64,000 nt of DNA from Lobosporangium transversale. Its lineage: Eukaryota. The stretch spans positions 186,001 through 250,000 of the forward strand of contig NW_019029014.1 in the NCBI RefSeq assembly GCF_002105155.1, read 5' to 3'. Of this stretch, positions 16,441-64,000 are shown one piece after another (positions within the stretch are counted from its first letter, which is position 1; every line of letters starts with the position of its first letter). The notes under the pieces are model-generated. The model made no database searches, had not been told where the DNA came from, and saw nothing but the letters and a program-made list of their open reading frames with translations. Both the position numbers and the translations under genes were made by a program.

Positions 16441-16961
16441 CTCGTAACCGGCCTGAGGCAAAGCCGCCGACGTTGTGACCGCGAATCTTTTCTTCTCAGG
16501 CTGCTGCGTACAAACATTGCCTATTAGCGGGAGTTCTTGACTTTTTCGACTTAGTTTTTTTGGAGGGCTTACTGCCCGCTGTCTCATAGTGATTCTGGTT
16601 CCTTCTTTCAGCTCTTGCACCTTAACTTCTTTATTTTTTCAGCTCCACTTCTTTTCTCCTTCAACTTTCTTCCCTCTCAGATATACACAAGTAAAATAAA
16701 AGCAAAAATAACAAGATTAGTAAAACTTATTGACATTGGCTTTGCACTTACTTTGGGTAAGAAAGAAGGGAAGAAAGTTGAAGGAGAAAAGAAGTGGAGC
16801 TGAAAAAATAAAGAAGTTAAGGTGCAAGAGCTGAAAGAAGGAACCAGAATCACTATGAGACAGCGGGCAGTAAGCCCTTCAAAAAAAACTAAGTCGAAAA
16901 AGTCAAGAACTTCCGCTAATAGGCGGTCACAACGTCGGCGGCTTTGCCTCAGGCTTACGAG
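16441..16961. repeat. Long inverted repeat (foldback / MITE-like element)
   Basis: 16441-16675 is the reverse complement of 16767-16961 apart from a few mismatches and a 38-bp indel (16483-16520). Spacer about 90 bp. Confidence 0.9.
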
Positions 16962-45878: not shown

Positions 45879-46474
45879 CCTCGGCCTCCTTGGCCCTCTT
45901 GATCAAGCTAGAATGGTAAGCAACACTCCTCAAACATCCACACCTACTGAAATGTTCAGCCCTCTCATCCCATGCTACATCGCTCTTGTTCTAACTTTAT
46001 CTTTTCTTGCCTGTCTCTCTCTTTTCATGTCATCCTTAGGCCACAGATGATATGAATCCTCTCCTAAACCAACCGGAGCCTGGCAGTTCGAGCCAGCTCC
46101 ACGATCAACTGGCGCCTCCATAAACAATATAGTGCCAACCCGCCCTGCCCCATCCTCCTCGCTGAAGCGGCCAGAGCATCTCATCCAAACAGCCAGGCCG
46201 CTTCCTCACTCAGGCGACCAGGCCAAACCCTCTCACTCAGCCAGCTAGGCTGCCTCCTTGTCCAAACAGCCGGGCTATGCCGTCGCTGCCTCGCTCAAGC
46301 AGCTTGATCACCTTCTCGAGCAAGCTCAAAGCCATGGCGACCAGGCTGCCCCTCCTTGGTGTGCTCTGGACGTCCCCTATCTAAAGAACAAAACCAACGA
46401 GAAACTGGACGATCCCAACGTCAAAACAAATATTAAAAAAACCAAAAATCAAAAATCAAAGAAAAAAGCAAAGA

Positions 46475-46558
46475 AAAAAAAAATCCAGAAAAAAAAATCC
46501 AGAAAAAAAAATCCAGAAAAAAAAATCCAGAAAAAAAAATCCAGAAAAAAAAATCCAG
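46475..46558 (+). repeat. 14-bp tandem repeat (AAAAAAAAATCCAG)x6 within a ~430-bp A-rich tract
   Basis: Six exact consecutive units followed by degenerate variants. Confidence 0.9.
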
Positions 46559-46656
46559 AAAAAAAAACCCAAAGAAAAAAAAAAAAAAACCAAAGAAACA
46601 TAAAAAAAAAGATCCAAAGAATAAAAAACTTATAAAAAAAAAAAAAGAAAAGAGCT

Positions 46657-46693
<37 letters not shown>

Positions 46694-46798
46694 AAAGAAA
46701 AGAACTTATTAAAAAAAAAAAAAAGATTAAAGAAAAAAAACTTATCCTAAGAAAAATTCCAAAGAAAAAAATCCTAAAAAAAAAACCAAAAAAAGAAT

Positions 46799-46840
<42 letters not shown>

Positions 46841-47452
46841 AGAACTAACACTTCAAATTCCAATAGAGCAACAACGCATATCCAAGGTAGGCCCGGACGG
46901 GCATGAGCCTGAGCTGGCTCTCATGAGCCATGCGATGGCGGAGCCCCTTCGGCTGGATTAATGGGTTAATGGGTTAATGGGTATGTGCACGGGCGTTTGC
47001 AAGGCCATGGGACCTGACCAACGGAGCACGATTTGCCAGACCACGTGTGCTCCGGACAACATCAAGACATCCCAAGGTGGCTAAGAGTCTGGCCTTTTGT
47101 AGCTTAGTATGTAGCCAGGTAGCAAACAAATAACTAAATAAAGAGTAAATTTTTTTAAAAATAAAAAAATAAAAAATAAAAAATAAAAAATAAAAAAAAA
47201 GTTGATTTAAAAGGCACCAAGAAGTAAAAAGCAAGTTGATAGGCATTCATTGAATTGTGATAGTGTTGATGGCAGATCATTGAATGGCATGGCACAATAT
47301 GGTTTGAAATGATAATAGTTAGAAGACAAGAGTGCTGCGGGTTCGTTATGAGTTTAAGAGGCGGCCGCCTGTTTGCTCTTTTGATTATGAGGAATAGCCT
47401 CCATCCTGGGCTTCTTACTATCCGAGTGGCATTGTGCAATGCAGCTGGTAAA

Positions 47453-51924: not shown

Positions 51925-53177
51925 TTCCTTGACTCTTTCTTTCCAATATTTTTTAACGTTCTCTCATTCGTCTCTGTCCGGACTATGTTCTATGCTGTAT
52001 TTAGGTCATTATTGTCCCCAGTAATGATTGGGGTGGTCAAGGACTCTTGGGCTGTGATGTAGGATACGGGTAAGGAATAGGCTATCTCATGAACAATGTT
52101 TGTCGACTCGATCTCTTGATCCTTATCTGTTTTTTTTTTTTTTTTTTTTTTTTTTTCCTCCGATGAGACAGATACCTCCATCGGTTGCCAAAGGATCCTA
52201 TGCAACATCGGGTAGCAAGTAGATCAGCGAAGGTGAAGGAAAAAGGCCCGATAGAGTCGAAAAAGCATAAAGAGAGCAATTTGTCATCATCTACTTCATC
52301 AGAAAAGAAGGATTTGAGCACTACCGCGGAGCATGTTCAGCAGGAAAGGGCCTCCGCAGTCCAAGATTCTGTCTCTCCAGTGCAGGCATCTGTGGGGAAC
52401 AACAATGATTATTCAGCAGAGCATTTGACTACTTCTTTCCCAACGACATCATCAACAGATGAACCTCACCCGACTCAAACACACATACGCGCCATTTCTA
52501 GTTCTTGTTCCTCCTCCAGCAGTGGCGGCTCTTCAAACCCTTTGTTTGTTGATGGTGTAGAGAAGCAAAAAGCTGAGGTTACTGCTTCTGTGGATTCTGA
52601 GCCTTCATCTCCGTCACAGCCACAGCCACATTTGAACTTTAAGGGTCAGCAGGGAGAAGACATAAAGAAAGAATTGTCATCATCGCCAGAGAATACTCCA
52701 CGACGTATGCCTCCACCAGCGATGGCAGCCAGGATGATGCGCGGAGGTATTCATGGCAGGGGTGGAGGTCGTGTTGGTCATGATGGACATTCCATACGTA
52801 CAAAGATATCCTTGGAGACCGCTCAGCAACAAGCACAACAGTACTCTGCAGAATATCGTGATCAAAAGGCACAGTTAGATTCAGAGGAGCATGAGCATGA
52901 GCATGAGCATGAGCATGAGCATGAGAAGGAAAAGGAAAAGGAGAAGAAGAAGGAAGGAAAGAAGGCAAACATCGATAGTAAGAGTGAGCTTCTTCCTCCT
53001 ACACAAGTCGAGGCAGGAGTACGCTCACAACATCTGGATACTCGGACTAAGCGAACAGGAGACCAATCTCCAGAAGGACCTCCAGTGTCTCCGGGTGTAG
53101 ACTTTAGAGATCGCGATCATGAGGTGGAGGGTATGATCCGTCATATGGCTCTTGGCGCATCCGTGTTTACTATCTGA
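50820..53177 (+). CDS. GRH1: GRASP55/65 family Golgi reassembly stacking protein, about 7 exons
   Basis: MGN..GYHVLR/VKNDSPAAQAGLRPFFDYI, GLIGCSIRF, VWHIL/DIMPNSPAERAGL, WGGQGLLGCDVGYG/YLHRLP are tandem GRASP PDZ domains, followed by a disordered tail. Confidence 0.92.
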
Positions 53178-53484
53178 TCGTTAGGTCTATCCACCTGACC
53201 ACACCCAGTTAAAAAAAAAAAAAAAAAAAAAGTAAAAAAGTAAAAAAGTAAAAATGTAAAAATGTAATGAACCCTTTCTGTCGCATATATATATATGGTA
53301 TTTTATTAAATGAAAAAGAAGGTCAAGAGTCAAGAGGTATGTATATGGGACTTTATAAATATTTATATACAATGATAATGATAATGATGATGATGATGAT
53401 GATGATGATGTTAATGATTGATGATGAATGTTATTATTACTGTTTTTTTCATATTTATACTTTTTTAAGCTTTTTTAAACTTTT

Positions 53485-54417
53485 TTACTTGGAGGCATCA
53501 GGAACAGGTGAAGCAGCAGCGAGTTGATTCTCGAGCTCTTGAATGCGCTGTTGAAGACGCTCAATGGTTGAGCGATAGCTTTCCTCTGTATGATGACTAC
53601 CATGACTATGAGTGCCAGAGGACAGGTGAGGGGAATTGGGAAAACTTCGCATTCTGATCAAGATGCTGGACTGGTGGCGTTGGTTCTTTGGACCGTGCTC
53701 CAGATCGTGTGTCGTCGTATCCGAGTCGGTTTGATCTTGATGTAGACGTTCACCATCTCTTAGAATCCTGTGATGCTCACCCCCATAATAAACAGCATAC
53801 TGGGGTTCATGAAGATAAGAAGAGTGAGAATGTGAGGGAGATCTAGGGTGATGAGAAGGACTGATGGTGGGCGAAGAGGTGTTTGCTAGCTCATTGACTG
53901 TAGACGAGGCTGAAGAAGAGCCGGTGATGGCGATGGCGGGCACGGCTGTGTTTGCATCCTGCTGTTTTATGCTAGAGTTGCCATCTCGAGTTGCCTGTTC
54001 ATCGTCGTCGTTGTCATCATTATCGGGGACATAATCGGCAATGGAGGTGGCCATGTCTTGATCGATGACGGCGATCTTTTGCTTTTTTGGATTCCACCAA
54101 TGGGTCGGGTATTTTCTTGCGACGTTGTTGACGATTAGGGCGACGATCATCATCAGAGCAACGCCGAGGCCGATGGGACAGAGCACATACCAATAGCCAA
54201 GATCGTAGAGTGTTTGGCCACCGGAGACGGCGATCAGGGCAGTAGCAGAGGCAGGCGGGTGGACTGTGTGGGTCAACTGCATACAGAAGAGTGAGATGGA
54301 GACTGCAAGGGAGCAGAGTAACCAATGCAGCTTGGCAAAGGTCTCGGGAGAGAGTAGATTAAATAACTTGTAGAGCGAAACTCCAATCAATGAGGACATG
54401 ATGTGGCCACCAACTTT

Positions 54418-54451
<34 letters not shown>

Positions 54452-54910
54452 AAAAAGAAAAAGAAAGTTAGACGTTTTTGTCAGTCAGGGGAAAGCGTAA
54501 TGTATGCCAGGAGAGAAAGAGAGAGAAAGTGTGGATTGATTGTACACCATGTGGGAAAAACAGATCTGCGAAAAAAAAAAAATTAAATTAAAAAGAAAAA
54601 AAAAAAAAAAAAAAAACTTACTGACGTTGCGAGGCTGGGACAAGGGAGCTTCGATGGCACCGTAGATGAGGACAGCAGAGGCACCAAAGGAACCAGCCAT
54701 GACGGGCACATTTCGATCGATGAACCATTGGGCATTGTAGGTTAGGGAAGAAACGATGGCAATGCCGACAAAAGAACCGATGAAGGAAGAAAGTAGGACA
54801 GCAAGGCGAGAAGGAGGGGCCTTGGGAGGAGCTCTGAGCTTATCAGGGTTATGACGTTGACCCGTCATCCTGCTCACATAGGCCTCCAATGCAGGAAACT
54901 GCGCCATCAT
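53485..54910 (-). CDS. HPP family membrane protein; exons 54910-54622, 54413-53485
   Basis: GSFGASAVLIYG...PLSQPRNV/IGGH and TVHPPASATAL are HPP family motifs. Confidence 0.92.
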
Positions 54911-55045
54911 TTATTTTATTTTCTTCTTCTTCAAAGAGGAGGGAGAGGGAATGGATAGATGGAATAGAATGCCCTGGTTTTGATTTGATTTGAATTGGAT
55001 TGAATGCGAAGGTGTGATATATCTAGCTATGGAGGTGTACAAAGA

Positions 55046-55172
55046 TGGAATGAATGTCTGTATGAATGAATGAATGTCTGTATGAATGAATGTATGAATG
55101 AATGAATGAATGAATGTATGTATGAATGTATGTATGAATGAATGAATGAATATATATGAATGTGTGAATGAA
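55046..55172 (+). repeat. Compound (TGAA/TGTA)n microsatellite upstream of the HPP gene
   Basis: Tetranucleotide periodicity visible directly. Confidence 0.85.
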
Positions 55173-56037
55173 AAGAGATCAGAGAAAGGAAAGAAAGAAA
55201 GAAAGAGAAAAGGAAGGAAGGAAGGGATATAAATAAGAAAGAGAGAAGGAAGGAAAGAGAGAAGAATGAGAGAATAAGAAAAAGGGTGCTTCTGCCCGGC
55301 AAAACATGCAATTGTTACTGACAGGACAGGAAGAAAAGGAATGGAGCGGAGAAGATTGTCTTTGAAAAAAAAAAGTTTAAGTGCATTTAACAAAAGAAGG
55401 AAAAAAAAAAAAAACGTCGACTCGGTGGAAGGGATATATATATATATATATATATAAATTAATATTTATTTACTTATTTATGCATGAATACTTTTTCTCT
55501 TGCTGAGAACCATGCACATGCGGCGAATGCTTACAAAGTAGAAAGAACAAAAGAAAGAAAGAAAGGAATCCATCGTAAAAATATAAAAAAAAATTGATGA
55601 AGAATGATGAAAGTAGGATATAAAATGAGCCATTCCATCAAAAAAAAATTTTTTTTTTTTTTTCTTTCTAGTCAAACAAAGTCCCCATGCTGAATTCGTT
55701 GGTTCGGAATATTTCATTTATCCGTTTAACCCATACCCTTGTAAAAGACATCAAAAGAGAAAAAGGATCCCAACATCGTACATGTGTGCATTTACATATA
55801 CTTATTATATATATATATATATACTACATGTATTATATTTGTATATACATGTATTCATTCTTATTATATTACATCTGTGTTTATGGATGAGTCTAATCAA
55901 ATAATCAAATACAAAAACGACTTTGCAGCAATTGAACATCTGAATCTGACTAAAGAAACCGTTGCACAAAAAAAAAAATTTTTTTTTCATGTACACATGT
56001 ATATGTATATAAATATACTGAAGATAGTTTTTGGGTG

Positions 56038-56759
56038 AATCTATTTGACAACCCGGGTTGTCACTCTTATTTGACAACCCCCCCCTAATTTAGCAGTCAC
56101 ACCGGCTTATTTGGCAACCCAGGTCTTCAATTTTCACTTTTTTGTTATTTGACAACCCGGGTTGTCAAGAAAAGAAGAAAAATTGTCTTTTTCAACCTGT
56201 CACATGACAAGTCTTCACCATCTTGCACTTTTGGAGGGCCTTTCTCAGCTGGATTTCTAAAATGGTGGCAACACTCCATTATCATGACTGTGGTTATAGC
56301 TTCTTCTGTCTCTCTTTTTTTTCCTTTCCGCGTCTTACGCATGCGCCATCAAGCGTCGCATAACCACTCCGAATTTATGCATGCTTATATATCCAAAAAC
56401 CCCTTAGTGCATGTTACCCGTATAGGCACATTTTCTATAAAAGCAAACCCTTGTTTTAGAAATCAGTTGTAATAAAAAAACAACACCTCGTAACCAAAAA
56501 AAAAAAGTTTGTTATTTGATGGAAGCTTTTAGATTGCTGGAGGGATTTCATGTTGCTGAGGGATAGCAATAGAAACGATTTTCACATAATAATCTTGCCA
56601 ATAAAAAAGGGTTGTCAAATAATAGTGAGCTTGGGGTTGTCAAATTAGATATTTTACTATTTGGCAACCCGGGTTGTCACGCAAAGAAAAAAAATTGAGA
56701 AAAATAATTAAGGGGGGGGTTGTCAAATAAGAGTGACAACCCGGGTTGTCAAATAGATT
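56038..56759. mobile_element. 722-bp non-autonomous element with 49-bp perfect TIRs and reiterated TGACAACCC motifs
   Basis: 56038-56086 is the exact reverse complement of 56711-56759. No credible ORF inside. Confidence 0.85.
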
Positions 56760-59740
56760 GTGAAACGAAATTGCTCACCTGTGTCCATTCAGATGGACAC
56801 AGGCGGACACAGGTGGACACAGAAGGATACCAAGTCACAAAATTTTTATATTTCGCTTCACAAATCTTTTTCCACAAAATGGATTTGTGAAGCGAAATAG
56901 ACAAAATCTTTTTATGGTAGAGACAGTGTTAATGATTAAACATGACAGTTTTTATATTGATGAAGTATTCAATTATTTCTGTTATAGTGCGTTGGTAGCC
57001 GAGTCGAGTCAAAAATGCTTTGATAGTGCTTTGATGGTGTTTTGTCTTGTTAATAATGTTGACGATAATGCTTTTTCCTGGATGATACTTATGCTAAACA
57101 CCTTGGAATATCACAAATTTCACGACAATGGATTGCTTGTACATTGTATTTTCTCAGCCTCTTTTGGCTCAAGGATGCAGCCAACAGTTTTCTGCCTCTT
57201 GTAGCTCAGTTCATGTCTTGGTATTTCCGACACCATCACTACTTTGTGCTTTATTGCTTAAATTTGTATCCGAGGATATATATATATATGTATATATAAA
57301 AAAAAAAAGAAAAAAAAAAATTACCCTTACTCATCTACTCGTCCGCATCTTGGTGGCAGCCTTCGTCATTCCCGGTGTCTTTCAGAAGCTCTAGTCGAAT
57401 GGAATTGATTGTCCGACCCTTGTACTGAGCTGTCAGTGCGTCTACTACCTCTTCGAAGTCTCGCTTCTGTTTTTCGGCAATATTCTTTATCAGATCGAAA
57501 ATTTGACGCCTGCGCCTGAATGCCTTGTGACGCGCCTCTGTGAATGGCCATTTGTGATTTTCCTGCTTTGCCTGAGCAACGGGCCCACGGAATTCATCCC
57601 ATGCTTCCCTGACCGTCAATTGCTTGCCATCGCCTTTCATGAGGTAGCCTTTATACCTTTCATCTTCCGGCAATCGTTGTGTCTGCTCTGAGGTCATTGG
57701 AGCCTGCACATGGCTATGTTGATATGGCTGTTGCTGAGGACATGGTGGCAATTGGTTGGAAAATAATGGCTGCTGTTGCGGTGGAGCGGCCTGGCGAGCT
57801 TGATATAGACCCTGCGTAGTAGGAGCCTGAGGAACCGAAGGAAAAGAAGCTAGGCGGCTCTGTGCTGGCGCCAATGGAGAAGGATTAAACACAAAGGGCG
57901 GGCAAGACTGCACATGATATGGAAAAGGCTGCCGCACATTTGCGCTTTGTTGCTGCTGCAGCGATTGGAGAAGTAAGTGGATTTGCTCCTGTTGCTGCCT
58001 CTGTTGCTCCTGTTGCTCTGTCACAAGGGTGGATAGGGCCTCGAGCTTCTGGACCGTCTCATGCTGGAGTTGATGAAAGACCCGCGCCTCTACCGACAAC
58101 GTGTTAATGGCGCTTACCATAGTTTGCGCATTAACTGGCACATCCGCTTGGATGATGCCTGCTTGTCGGCGATGTACGTCGATGGCCCGAAGCAATTGAT
58201 GTTGGAAATCCAGAAAGAGCTGGCAACCAAAGATTTCTGGTAACGACTCGAGGAGTTTGTTCTCCAACATTTTCCCCTTGTCATTCGGCTTCAAAAAGAG
58301 CACTGCATCCTGAAGGATTACTCGCCTCATACGCACAAGAAGTTTGAGGAACCCAATGCGTGTAACAAGGGAGTCAGTGCTGAAGGCACGGGTCAATCGT
58401 TTCGAGCTCGTCTTCTTCTCGATTGGCGTCCAAAAAATGTCTTCGTCTGTCGGGACATTTGGATCGACCCCCAGCATTTCTTTGGCGCACTCCTCTCTCC
58501 AGGAGTCAGCTCTCTCCGGCATATCTTTATCAAAATTTTCCTCAATCCAAGGAAAGACCAGACGCTGGAGCTCTAAGGGCGGGGTGACCAAATCACGCTC
58601 GATAAAGTAAGGCTCATTCGGTCCAAACTGAGCCATACAAAAAGCGCCCCTGGTTGGGTTTTTTGGAGCATAGAAGTTCTCCATTTGCCCCATGACCCAC
58701 CTTCCCAAGTGGCGAATATCGTCCAGGCTTAAGCCCCTTTCGTAGGCTTCCGAGACCCCTGCATGTCGGCCAGAGTGCGTAATTTTGGCCGAATGCACGT
58801 CGCAGGCACGCATTACAGCCGCCGTAGTGCTCATTTGGGTTCGGCCAACAAGCGCTTCCTTTCGGTTCTCTAACCGTTCTTGGCTTGTGCCACCCCCTGT
58901 TAGCACCTTGATGCTGTACCACTCGTCAGGGTCCGCAAAATTGGGAAGAGGCTCCTTGAACACCTACAATAGGGAAAAAAAAAAAATAAAAAAAAAAAAT
59001 AAGGATATATGTCACTTCGTGTAATTGAATGAGAAAAAATCATACGCTCGCGTCAAGACTGACGGCATCATTTACCTGGAACCGTTCTAGCATATAAAAT
59101 GCAAACCCGCCCACGGTGCACCTTAAGAACAGCTTATGTCGATAAGCTGTCGCATAGAGTTCGACACCTTTATGGTTTGTCTTTCCACGTGTGATGCAGA
59201 AGACAAGCCCCGACGCCAGCTTTGACCCTGGCGCGGGGTGACGGGTCTGAATATTGAATGTGTTAGCCAGGTTCAAGTTTCGGATGTCCTCATCCCGCAG
59301 CAACATATGATGGCGTGCAAGGAGGCATAGCCTCTCCCTCATATACTGAAATCTTGTAACACTGTCGTAAGGTCGCCTGCCGCTTACTCCAACCGTCGGA
59401 AGCATGCGCCATGTAAAGGCCAACATACGCAGGTACATTTTAGTGTTGTACGGTTCTCGTACGGCACAGGTGGCAGTGCGGGATAAGGTGCCTGTCGTTA
59501 CTTTGTGATGGACAAGTTTCTCTCCATAATTTTTGATCGCCTCCGCTAGTGGTACATCCGTTCTTGGGTTTGGGGCGGGATTGGGATACGGAGCTGTCGA
59601 AGAAGACTGTTGCCTCCATAAGTATTGCAAAGCCTTCTTAACATTTGCGACTGTCCCCAGCGTGAGAGGAACAAAGACAATTTTGCTGCCATGTTTGTCC
59701 TCTGGTGCTTGCAGGATAACTACAAACGCAAAAGTATATC

Positions 59741-59775
<35 letters not shown>

Positions 59776-61534
59776 TTGTATAATAAAAAGTATCAACCAT
59801 TAGTGTAAATTGTAACAATCAAAGATACATTAAGGTGGATGCAGGATTAAGGAATGGTTTATTAAGTCATAATTTAGTAGGCTATTTATATTGATAATTA
59901 ACACTGAGTTGCGGCCATGGTGTCTTGTCACCTGGGGTACGCGTGATGGCGGAGCCTTCCCAAAGGTTTGGATCCCAGTACTGTATAACAATTTATATAT
60001 TAATACATGGTTATCTTTACATACCTTGTTCTCTTTCATTTTCAGTCCTGATAACGGCTGCAGTCTTCCGCTTCGGCGTGATGTTCTTGCTTGAACCCCC
60101 AACAGTTACAGCTTCATGTGATGCTCGCTCCTCATCATTCAATGCTATATCAATCTGCCATTGATGTGGGTCGACTCCTTCAGGTGGCTCCATATTATCC
60201 CAGGAGGGAGGAGCCTTCTTACCTCTCTGTGCCAATGACCTCAGCTGAAGCTCCAGATCTTCATCCTGTTCCTGTTCCTGTCCTTGTTCCTGTCCCTGCC
60301 CCTGACCCTGTCTCCGTTCCTGATCCTGTTCCTGACCCTGTCCCTGACCCTGTCCCTGTTGTTGACCTTGGTCTATGCTTTGGCCGTCGTCGTCATCAAC
60401 TTGCTCGCTGTTATCTAATGTCTCCAGTCTCTGCTCCATGTCGCTTAGTTCATGTTCGTCGATATCTGCCTCGACTAATTCGTCGATCTCTTCTCCCTCA
60501 TAGACTGCGTCTTCCCCAGCCTGAGAATTCGAAGAATCTCCTACACCCTGCTGGGCATACCCAATAGCGCCACGGTAGCAACGATCTGTGCCGATCAATC
60601 GCTTTACTGTTCGCTTGAAGACAACCGTTGTGAAGTATTCAAGCATGCGTTTCGCATCGACGCTACAGTCACCTTGATAATTTTCATTGCAGTATTGCTA
60701 AAAACAAAAAAGAGAATTAGCCAAGTCGTCTAGTTTGATAGCCTGTCTGAGATAGCTCATAGCGACATTTTGATGATCCAACATACCTCCCACAGCCGGA
60801 GCTGTGTCTTATATTGATTCACTGTCGTCGATGAATCTGGATCATCTAAAATCATCTGCAGCACACTTCTCGCCGACTCCTTCCGTGCGTTCGCCAGGGC
60901 CAGCTCTTCTTCTGTCAATGGACCGGAGTGAAGGACATTTGAGGATAAAGAATCAGCCTCACAACGCCTAGGGCGCTTAAAAGACTTTGCACTAACTCTA
61001 GCAGTCTGTGCCACTGGTGAAGGCTCTGGAGTCGTTTCGTCAGTCAGAATAACTCTTTTTCTCCTCGGTGCTGCACGAGTGGATCCAGTGCGAGTACTTG
61101 ACTTGGTTGGCTTCGTCTGACTGGTGCTTTGTTCCAAATCCATGCAGGTGAAATTGGATAAAATCTTTTCGTTGTTGTTTGTCATTTTGAAAGTGAGCAA
61201 GCAGGAATGAACCTTTGAAAATGCGAATGTGCCGTTATTTTTCTCAGTTTTAGTCAGGGGAGAGGGTAGGTCTACTCTGTGTATTGTAGGTTTTATTGTT
61301 TTATTGTGTAAATGAATGTATGGAGGAATGAAGGCGTGAAATAAAGAAGAAAGAAAGAGATCTTTAGCATGCCATGATGACATTGTTAAAATTTCGATGG
61401 ATTTGATGTCAATTCAAATTTCAGGACAAGTGTCGGAGTAAAAGCCACAAAACGGACACATGTCTTGTACGTACAGACATGAAACATAATACCCTTAAAT
61501 GGAAAAAGGACTGGATTTGGCATCATAATCCATT
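56753..61534 (-). mobile_element. Crypton (CryptonF-like) tyrosine-recombinase transposon, copy 1, 4782 bp
   Basis: The unit is defined by sequence restarting identically at 61535 (ATAGATTGTGAAACGAAATTGCTCACC..). It carries a single YR + GCR1_C-like gene. Confidence 0.88.
57335..61185 (-). CDS. Crypton tyrosine recombinase (Ndc10-like YR domain plus C-terminal GCR1_C-like DNA-binding domain); exons approx. 61185-60787, 60697-60025, 59719-59076, 58963-57335
   Basis: Catalytic set HHMLLR(R), RGKTN(K), THSGRHAG (HxxR), LGRW (W), MENFY (Y). C-terminal LTVREAWDEF...W......FRRRRQIFDLI. These splices keep the frame; a possible small extra exon near 59932-59980 is unresolved. Confidence 0.88.
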
Positions 61535-64000
61535 ATAGATTGTGAAACGAAATTGCTCACCTGTGTCCATTCAGATGGACACAGGCGGACACAGGTGGAC
61601 ACAGAAGGATACCAAGTCACAAAATTTTTATATTTCGCTTCACAAATCTTTTTCCACAAAATGGATTTGTGAAGCGAAATAGACAAAATCTTTTTATGGT
61701 AGAGACAGTGTTAATGATTAAACATGACAGTTTTTATATTGATGAAGTATTCAATTATTTCTGTTATAGTGCGTTGGTAGCCGAGTCGAGTCAAAAATGC
61801 TTTGATAGTGCTTTGATGGTGTTTTGTCTTGTTAATAATGTTGACGATAATGCTTTTTCCTGGATGATACTTATGCTAAACACCTTGGAATATCACAAAT
61901 TTCACGACAATGGATTGCTTGTACATTGTATTTTCTCAGCCTCTTTTGGCTCAAGGATGCAGCCAACAGTTTTCTGCCTCTTGTAGCTCAGTTCATGTCT
62001 TGGTATTTCCGACACCATCACTACTTTGTGCTTTATTGCTTAAATTTGTATCCGAGGATATATATATATATGTATATATAAAAAAAAAAAAGAAAAAAAA
62101 AAATTACCCTTACTCATCTACTCGTCCGCATCTTGGTGGCAGCCTTCGTCATTCCCGGTGTCTTTCAGAAGCTCTAGTCGAATGGAATTGATTGTCCGAC
62201 CCTTGTACTGAGCTGTCAGTGCGTCTACTACCTCTTCGAAGTCTCGCTTCTGTTTTTCGGCAATATTCTTTATCAGATCGAAAATTTGACGCCTGCGCCT
62301 GAATGCCTTGTGACGCGCCTCTGTGAATGGCCATTTGTGATTTTCCTGCTTTGCCTGAGCAACGGGCCCACGGAATTCATCCCATGCTTCCCTGACCGTC
62401 AATTGCTTGCCATCGCCTTTCATGAGGTAGCCTTTATACCTTTCATCTTCCGGCAATCGTTGTGTCTGCTCTGAGGTCATTGGAGCCTGCACATGGCTAT
62501 GTTGATATGGCTGTTGCTGAGGACATGGTGGCAATTGGTTGGAAAATAATGGCTGCTGTTGCGGTGGAGCGGCCTGGCGAGCTTGATATAGACCCTGCGT
62601 AGTAGGAGCCTGAGGAACCGAAGGAAAAGAAGCTAGGCGGCTCTGTGCTGGCGCCAATGGAGAAGGATTAAACACAAAGGGCGGGCAAGACTGCACATGA
62701 TATGGAAAAGGCTGCCGCACATTTGCGCTTTGTTGCTGCTGCAGCGATTGGAGAAGTAAGTGGATTTGCTCCTGTTGCTGCCTCTGTTGCTCCTGTTGCT
62801 CTGTCACAAGGGTGGATAGGGCCTCGAGCTTCTGGACCGTCTCATGCTGGAGTTGATGAAAGACCCGCGCCTCTACCGACAACGTGTTAATGGCGCTTAC
62901 CATAGTTTGCGCATTAACTGGCACATCCGCTTGGATGATGCCTGCTTGTCGGCGATGTACGTCGATGGCCCGAAGCAATTGATGTTGGAAATCCAGAAAG
63001 AGCTGGCAACCAAAGATTTCTGGTAACGACTCGAGGAGTTTGTTCTCCAACATTTTCCCCTTGTCATTCGGCTTCAAAAAGAGCACTGCATCCTGAAGGA
63101 TTACTCGCCTCATACGCACAAGAAGTTTGAGGAACCCAATGCGTGTAACAAGGGAGTCAGTGCTGAAGGCACGGGTCAATCGTTTCGAGCTCGTCTTCTT
63201 CTCGATTGGCGTCCAAAAAATGTCTTCGTCTGTCGGGACATTTGGATCGACCCCCAGCATTTCTTTGGCGCACTCCTCTCTCCAGGAGTCAGCTCTCTCC
63301 GGCATATCTTTATCAAAATTTTCCTCAATCCAAGGAAAGACCAGACGCTGGAGCTCTAAGGGCGGGGTGACCAAATCACGCTCGATAAAGTAAGGCTCAT
63401 TCGGTCCAAACTGAGCCATACAAAAAGCGCCCCTGGTTGGGTTTTTTGGAGCATAGAAGTTCTCCATTTGCCCCATGACCCACCTTCCCAAGTGGCGAAT
63501 ATCGTCCAGGCTTAAGCCCCTTTCGTAGGCTTCCGAGACCCCTGCATGTCGGCCAGAGTGCGTAATTTTGGCCGAATGCACGTCGCAGGCACGCATTACA
63601 GCCGCCGTAGTGCTCATTTGGGTTCGGCCAACAAGCGCTTCCTTTCGGTTCTCTAACCGTTCTTGGCTTGTGCCACCCCCTGTTAGCACCTTGATGCTGT
63701 ACCACTCGTCAGGGTCCGCAAAATTGGGAAGAGGCTCCTTGAACACCTACAATAGGGAAAAAAAAAAAATAAAAAAAAAAATAAGGATATATGTCACTTC
63801 GTGTAATTGAATGAGAAAAAATCATACGCTCGCGTCAAGACTGACGGCATCATTTACCTGGAACCGTTCTAGCATATAAAATGCAAACCCGCCCACGGTG
63901 CACCTTAAGAACAGCTTATGTCGATAAGCTGTCGCATAGAGTTCGACACCTTTATGGTTTGTCTTTCCACGTGTGATGCAGAAGACAAGCCCCGACGCCA
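61535..64000 (-). mobile_element. Crypton copy 2 (tandem, runs off the window edge)
   Basis: Matches 56753 onward at offset 4782/4783. The only differences I saw are 1-nt changes in poly(A) runs. Confidence 0.9.
62118..64000 (-). CDS. Crypton tyrosine recombinase, copy 2 (3' part only in window)
   Basis: The 542-aa ORF 62118-63746 is identical to ORF 57335-58963. Confidence 0.88.

Follow-up and report, generated by a model that had tools for sequence, protein, structure and literature searches.

Two CryptonF elements joined head to tail in Lobosporangium transversale, and the probable part of their own recombinase in the joint

How do two near-identical copies of a transposon come to lie directly end to end? 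The question is raised by the right-hand part of the window, by which we mean the whole 64,000-nucleotide stretch of DNA analysed here (Lobosporangium transversale, assembly GCF_002105155.1, contig NW_019029014.1, positions 186,001 to 250,000, forward strand). In this part, a unit at 56753-61534 repeats without spacer at a period of 4,782 bp, and one full copy and 52% of a second (~1.5 copies) fall inside the window.

56753..61540, minus strand: CryptonF element copy 1, the 4,782-bp unit together with the terminal hexamer that both copies share (self-alignment, contigs of public runs)
61535..64000, minus strand: CryptonF element copy 2, incomplete because the window ends here (self-alignment)

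The direct repetition of a 4,782-bp unit had been claimed in the original prediction and is confirmed by self-BLAST and global alignment. The stretches 56753-59218 and 61535-64000 are 99.9% identical over 2,467 columns with no substitution, and the match is not extendable to the left of 56753/61535. As had also been predicted, the copies differ in homopolymer length only: copy 2 could be compared over 2,466 bp, and two one-base indels are observed there, both in A-runs. One-base homopolymer indels are of the kind given by long-read consensus errors, and the two copies may therefore be fully identical. The 542-aa open reading frame of the last exon, said to be identical in both copies, is the same at 57335-58963 and 62118-63746 on the minus strand. 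The predicted head-to-tail order holds for two joined copies (the second to 52%), and the visible extent of what had been called an array is these two, its far end lying beyond the window. The Crypton stretch is found in seven of eight listed public sequencing runs. Four were compared, three DNA runs from three studies and run X7, which we class as RNA from its two GT-AG joints, no run being recorded as RNA; one of the runs may be the source of the window. No read or contig crossing the joint between the copies was seen in these four runs. We regard the head-to-tail Crypton pair as real-looking.

The unit carries a single four-exon gene on the minus strand, with an open frame of 1,100 aa and GT-AG introns of 89, 305 and 112 nt. 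All long frames of the unit are explained by these four exons.

60787..61143, minus strand: exon 1, coding part (homology; splice joint 60697-60787 in run X7)
60025..60697, minus strand: exon 2, helical N-terminal region plus an acidic linker rich in Q and G (homology; X7 splice joints)
59076..59719, minus strand: exon 3, first half of the recombinase domain (Pfam, homology; X7 joint 59719-60025)
59295-59297, minus strand: R485, in exon 3
59181-59183, minus strand: K523, in exon 3
58964-59075, minus strand: intron 3, predicted (GT-AG ends and homology)
57335..58963, minus strand: exon 4 (542 aa), with H621, R624, W647, Y656, a Q/P-rich linker, GCR1_C and the stop (Pfam, open reading frame)
58670-58672, minus strand: Y656, in exon 4
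57434-57616, minus strand: GCR1_C domain, in exon 4 (Pfam)

We infer the start codon at 61143, and an upstream in-frame start is possible. NDC10_II of Pfam matches exon 4 (E 9e-11) and exon 3 (E 4e-5), and GCR1_C (PF12550) matches exon 4 with E 1.1e-4, which at 22.9 bits against a cut-off of 23 is borderline. These HMM matches uphold the proposal of a Crypton with GCR1_C that is related to Ndc10, the GCR1_C match with the caution just given. At E 0.001 GCR1_C goes undetected in the relatives P0031, P0032 and L006; P0032 still aligns across the GCR1_C region. Tyrosine recombinases usually carry their residues in the order R-K-H-R-W-Y. The full R-K-HxxR-W-Y set that had been predicted is located in the spliced model as R485, K523, H621, R624, W647 and Y656, whose catalytic role is assigned by motif; the six residues are kept in most relatives. 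No further Pfam family is found at E 0.001 among the five frames scanned and DUF3435 is unmatched at E 0.1, which leaves a unit of 4.8 kb with a single gene and without cargo. A 146-aa plus-strand frame at 56764-57204 was rejected as a gene, having neither start codon support nor a Pfam match.

The protein has 29 + 5 homologs, the best at 66%, and those with a name are mostly from Mortierellaceae, which makes a fungus of this family the likely host. Full-length homologs of 952-1,063 aa align to exons 1, 2 and 3 as well. No relatives are found among viral contigs, searches of PDB sequences return low-complexity matches only, and no relevant paper on Mortierellaceae Cryptons was found in the literature searched. 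Judged from its sequence, the unit is a CryptonF element and a new member of this group. The predicted models give weak structural support for a recombinase. Exon 4 alone is predicted with a pLDDT of 66 and has no PDB match, because the recombinase domain spans two exons. The recombinase stretch of P0031 is predicted poorly (pLDDT 51). With this low-confidence model, the first 28 rows of Foldseek are all tyrosine recombinases, the best at E 0.014 and none at E 0.001, and VIA-align lists no recombinase or Ndc10 among 50 rows, its best row being a 42-residue helix-turn-helix with Z 5.1. In another protein, P0026 (894 aa), part of the recombinase domain is annotated alongside AAA-ATPase domains, which may be a gene-model fusion.

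Is the gene transcribed and spliced? The spliced transcript, named as a check in the original prediction, is observed in X7 for introns 1 and 2 through the two joints given above; splicing of intron 3 is not seen in this one RNA run. One X7 contig extends 66 nt beyond the predicted intron 3 donor, leading to a protein that ends at 569 aa. The region of the catalytic tyrosine is thinly covered in X7, and the deepest X7 contigs derive from copies that have diverged or lost internal sequence (9 differences in 454 bp). This pattern counts against present activity but, as X7 contigs cannot rank transcripts, is to be taken as a caution only. Predicted intron 3 divides the recombinase domain into a part with R-K and a part with H-R-W-Y, and the 569-aa product lacks the catalytic tyrosine. 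Retention of intron 3 is a possible mode of regulation. P elements are regulated through intron retention. One X7 contig of an internally deleted derivative continues for 1,052 nt past the 3' end of the element, and another contains about 350 nt of non-element sequence ahead of the 5' end; this flanking sequence suggests read-through from a host transcript.

The public runs also define copy number and element ends. In the three DNA runs, the depth of host-flank contigs is 99-111, about 6-10 and 7-8, compared with about 1,550, 92-99 and 76-85 for the part present in full-length elements only and about 2,240, 161-173 and 148-160 at the element ends. Relative to the flank this is roughly 10-17x for the full-length-only part and 16-30x for the ends, a rough measure in which depth does not equal copy number. 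The multi-copy state that read depth was to check is thereby supported in all three DNA runs. Contigs branch at both element ends, and one other flank is seen. They start exactly at 56753 in three of three DNA runs and end at 61536 in two of the three (those shown), while one X7 contig runs through the element to 61540 and then leaves into different sequence. The boundaries of the 4,782-bp unit are thus the ends of the element, as had been predicted.

56753..56758, plus strand: terminal hexamer ATAGAT at the left end of the array, overlapping the tip of a MITE (alignment)
57207..58698, unstranded: stretch lost in a non-autonomous derivative elsewhere in the genome (joint 57206-58714)

The hexamer ATAGAT is common to both copies, at 56753 and at 61535, and the unit is without a terminal inverted repeat. 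The element ends are fixed, the flanks are variable, and the terminal repeat is ATAGAT; its third base is likely variable at the 5' end. The derivative joint 57206-58714 is present in four of four runs. The internally deleted derivative lacks the catalytic tyrosine and GCR1_C and retains both ends.

Compared with the window, the majority contigs have about ten base differences and one 3-bp insertion (among the rows listed), and the host-flank pieces have none. At seven compared sites the two window copies agree with each other and the majority contigs differ, at six sites in three DNA runs and at one in two. Such agreement at seven minority-allele sites is expected from a single donor. The data fit a young family and a pair derived from one donor, provided that the strains are the same. 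The very young age proposed earlier is supported to the extent that this is a recent multi-copy family. In run X1, a depth of ~280 (2.5-2.8x the host flank) retains the base of the window at 61269, a weak hint of two to three such copies.

The joint between the copies has a layout of its own.

61523..61545, unstranded: joint of copy 1 and copy 2, predicted recombination site (sequence; layout as in L006)
56777..56829, unstranded: short subterminal repeats of GGACAC type with one inverted pair, predicted to be bound as accessory sites (sequence; L002, L004, L006)
56843..56905, unstranded: subterminal hairpin with 29-bp arms, 86% complementary (repeat search)

Two inverted arms of 8 bp, 61523-61530 and 61538-61545, match at 7/8 positions and enclose a 7-bp spacer at 61531-61537; the shared hexamer at 61535-61540 straddles spacer and arm. 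The background for a 7/8 arm is ~0.001 per position, which we estimate to become about 0.03 when the choice of centre and spacer is allowed for, and the arm symmetry was picked after looking and concerns two elements only. The second element is L006, one of eight metagenome loci of relatives that were compared and the only one with both ends. L006, a single element, measures 4,662 bp, has a terminal repeat of 6 bp and shares the catalytic motifs. Its ends set together reproduce 13/14 bases of the window joint around the repeat, and its arms match at 6/8 positions around a 7-bp spacer. In L006, one left-arm change is mirrored on the right and is thus compensatory; another change breaks a pair. 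None of the eight loci shows a tandem copy or a terminal overlap, but they provide no test for arrays, because all are shorter than 4.8 kb and one alone contains both ends.

Motifs of the GACAY type accumulate in the last 220 bp before the similar end of the relatives, with 7 in L002, 4 in L004 and 6 in L006 versus 1.2-1.3 expected. The window unit has 4 versus 1.3 expected, for a motif that was picked after looking. A 12-bp motif of the hairpin recurs at the matching place in L006, alone of the eight loci, and Rfam yields no matches in 53000-64000. In the relative L001, a ~190-bp palindromic element occurs twice (90-285 and 1049-1246, 82-87% alike), one copy sitting between exon-like blocks of the recombinase gene.

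At its left end the array meets a MITE.

56038..56759, unstranded: non-coding MITE bounded by terminal inverted repeats of 55 bp, flanks A-AT ... AT-T (repeat search, depth)

This MITE of 722 bp is non-coding and multi-copy, with high depth and other flanks in the runs, and the start of the array lies in its right tip. Over seven bases, the MITE tip together with an AT-type flank reads identically to the Crypton end, and the loose-end consensus of other MITE copies closes with the same bases. According to the accessible part of PMC4482050, target duplications are A|AT|T for ISL2EU and ANT for Pangu. The flanks of the MITE are compatible with the ISL2EU rule A|AT|T as far as the right flank, overwritten by the Crypton, allows. 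In the first 56 kb of the window the 7-mer occurs 7x and the 6-mer 21x, and one MITE-tip insertion among about 20 copies could be chance. The MITE-tip target, the inverted-arm joint and the deleted derivative go beyond what the original prediction contained.

Several other features were recorded in the window. The nearest host gene to the left (53485-54909) encodes an HPP-family membrane protein and lies about 1.1 kb from the MITE; further host genes encode F-box/LRR, peptidase C1, AMP-binding, BTB, ABC transporter and amino-acid permease proteins. A small inverted-repeat element at 16519-16924 has 121-nt arms, 99% complementary, and 49-nt outer arms. An A-rich 14-bp tandem repeat is located at 46412-46860, and a 15-bp coding repeat at 9285-9734 lies inside a 773-aa frame.

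How, then, did the pair arise? We favour, with a probability of roughly 0.6, that a multi-copy CryptonF element produced a pair sharing one 6-bp repeat by means of its own recombinase, which would join the ends to a circle and integrate this circle at the regenerated hexamer. The protein would bind the inverted arms of the joint and the subterminal repeats and cut within the 7-bp spacer, one or two bases from its edge, a crossover position that follows from the flank data. A target would have to supply no more than the inner arm and about 2-3 spacer bases that match. The first insertion into the MITE tip would have left a usable site at the 5' end of the element, and a circle or dimeric circle from the same donor would then have entered this site, with a head-to-tail pair and an exact circle-type joint as product. 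An origin by the own recombinase is supported by a joint that falls exactly on the element ends, where no more than 6-7 bases are shared, by the full catalytic set and by the open frame of 1,100 aa. The fixed ends with their variable flanks, the joint layout of L006, the alleles common to both window copies and the clean excision with copy gain published for an algal CryptonF (PMC9977147) speak for it too.

Among the points against this origin is that the host could reach the same product through homologous recombination of a circle with a resident copy. The recombinase would then make the circle only, and the host would insert it, or unequal crossing-over would expand the pair; either way the joint would be just as exact and the neighbours just as nearly identical. 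Even so, a joint made by the recombinase has to come first on this route, no observation prefers it to site-specific integration, and the element itself is intact; we consider it unlikely, though the most serious of the alternatives. An assembly artefact, either one chromosomal copy combined with reads of a free circle or a mis-join among near-identical copies, would agree with differences in homopolymer length only, with a multi-copy family and with a joint that is without independent read support. However, both copies carry the minority and not the majority alleles, and the depth of X1 at 61269 hints weakly at two to three such copies. Since 6-7 shared bases appear too few for an assembler to join the ends unless reads cross the joint, the joint is likely present in the sample, as tandem or as circle, and we judge an artefact to be improbable. 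A generic segmental duplication that happened to include the transposon is very improbable: tandem duplications are common, but the breakpoint here agrees, down to the single base, with where other copies end and with the terminus of L006.

Integration by the element's own recombinase, our preferred reading, can be extended tentatively; we would sooner doubt than trust the extension. A standard two-step exchange requires a matching spacer. The terminal repeats could instead be the visible part of an arm-spacer-arm site, at which one strand-pair exchange would take place on 2-3 bases at the edge of the spacer; completion would fall to replication or to a nuclease that cuts the junction. MITE tips with the matching seven bases would serve as landing pads, and the tandem copy would be switched on by a permanent circle-type joint. 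If true, this arm-spacer-arm mechanism would explain why targets are chosen loosely, why copies are gained although excision is clean, and how head-to-tail arrays form. The enzyme would be a compact site-specific recombinase of eukaryotes that needs a short target, and the way in which Cryptons gain copies would be accounted for. With an intact gene, defined ends and a circle-type joint, this one locus offers enzyme and substrate for a direct test.

The CTX phage arrays at dif are an analogy for how such a system works, and for this only. For the CryptonF elements of fungi and oomycetes, the part of PMC3212892 available to us describes a recombinase with GCR1_C, 6-bp terminal repeats and a proposed circle model. 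Our unit shares with that description the single recombinase and GCR1_C gene and the absence of terminal inverted repeats; its 4.8 kb lie inside the range of 1.8-6.0 kb, and tens of copies are likewise reported. The 6-bp repeat is ATAGAT here, ATAACT in CryptonF-2_ACap and CAGTAT in CryptonF-1_RO, and termini given as TAACTA/TACCTA vary in their third base (same portion of PMC3212892). Head-to-tail layout, arm-spacer-arm joint and MITE-tip target do not occur in that portion of the CryptonF description. Algal CryptonF termini, CACCG/CAYCG in the sections of PMC9977147 at hand, are again variable in the third base. The same sections report movement, clean excision and copy gain for CryptonF-1_cRei of Chlamydomonas reinhardtii. 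In common with our element, CryptonF-1_cRei has, as far as those sections go, a short donor motif, a near-identical target, a variable third base and a copy number above one. CryptonF-1_cRei, unlike the window element, has been seen moving, and no tandem Crypton is described for CryptonF-1_cRei in the available text of PMC9977147 and its preprint. We found no paper on head-to-tail Cryptons in the literature searched, the accessible text of PMC13465315 included and Repbase and most subscription journals lying outside the search. A 2026 review states, in its accessible part, that the transposition mechanism of Cryptons is without experimental demonstration (PMC13565253).

In the circles of Starships, recombinase expression is increased by the joint, according to the excerpt available of bioRxiv 10.64898/2026.09.21.753150. 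On the same excerpt, the likeness lies in the tyrosine recombinase, the short flanking microhomology and the circle joint. A tandem copy stands permanently behind a joint of this kind. Starships differ, as characterised there, in being giant elements with DUF3435 captains and cargo, whereas our unit has no DUF3435 match and no cargo. Integrons resolve a single strand exchange by replication (PMC12614218, in the portion consulted). On that portion, the integron integrase is an analogy only, for one exchange with minimal homology, as it belongs to a different protein family and acts on a single-stranded substrate. The domesticated Crypton genes Ndc10/Cbf2 and Gcr1 have the NDC10_II and GCR1_C matches in common with our element (PMC3212892, available part). 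By that account, they are host genes in single copy that no longer possess the catalytic site, whereas the window element keeps the site, is multi-copy and has fixed ends.
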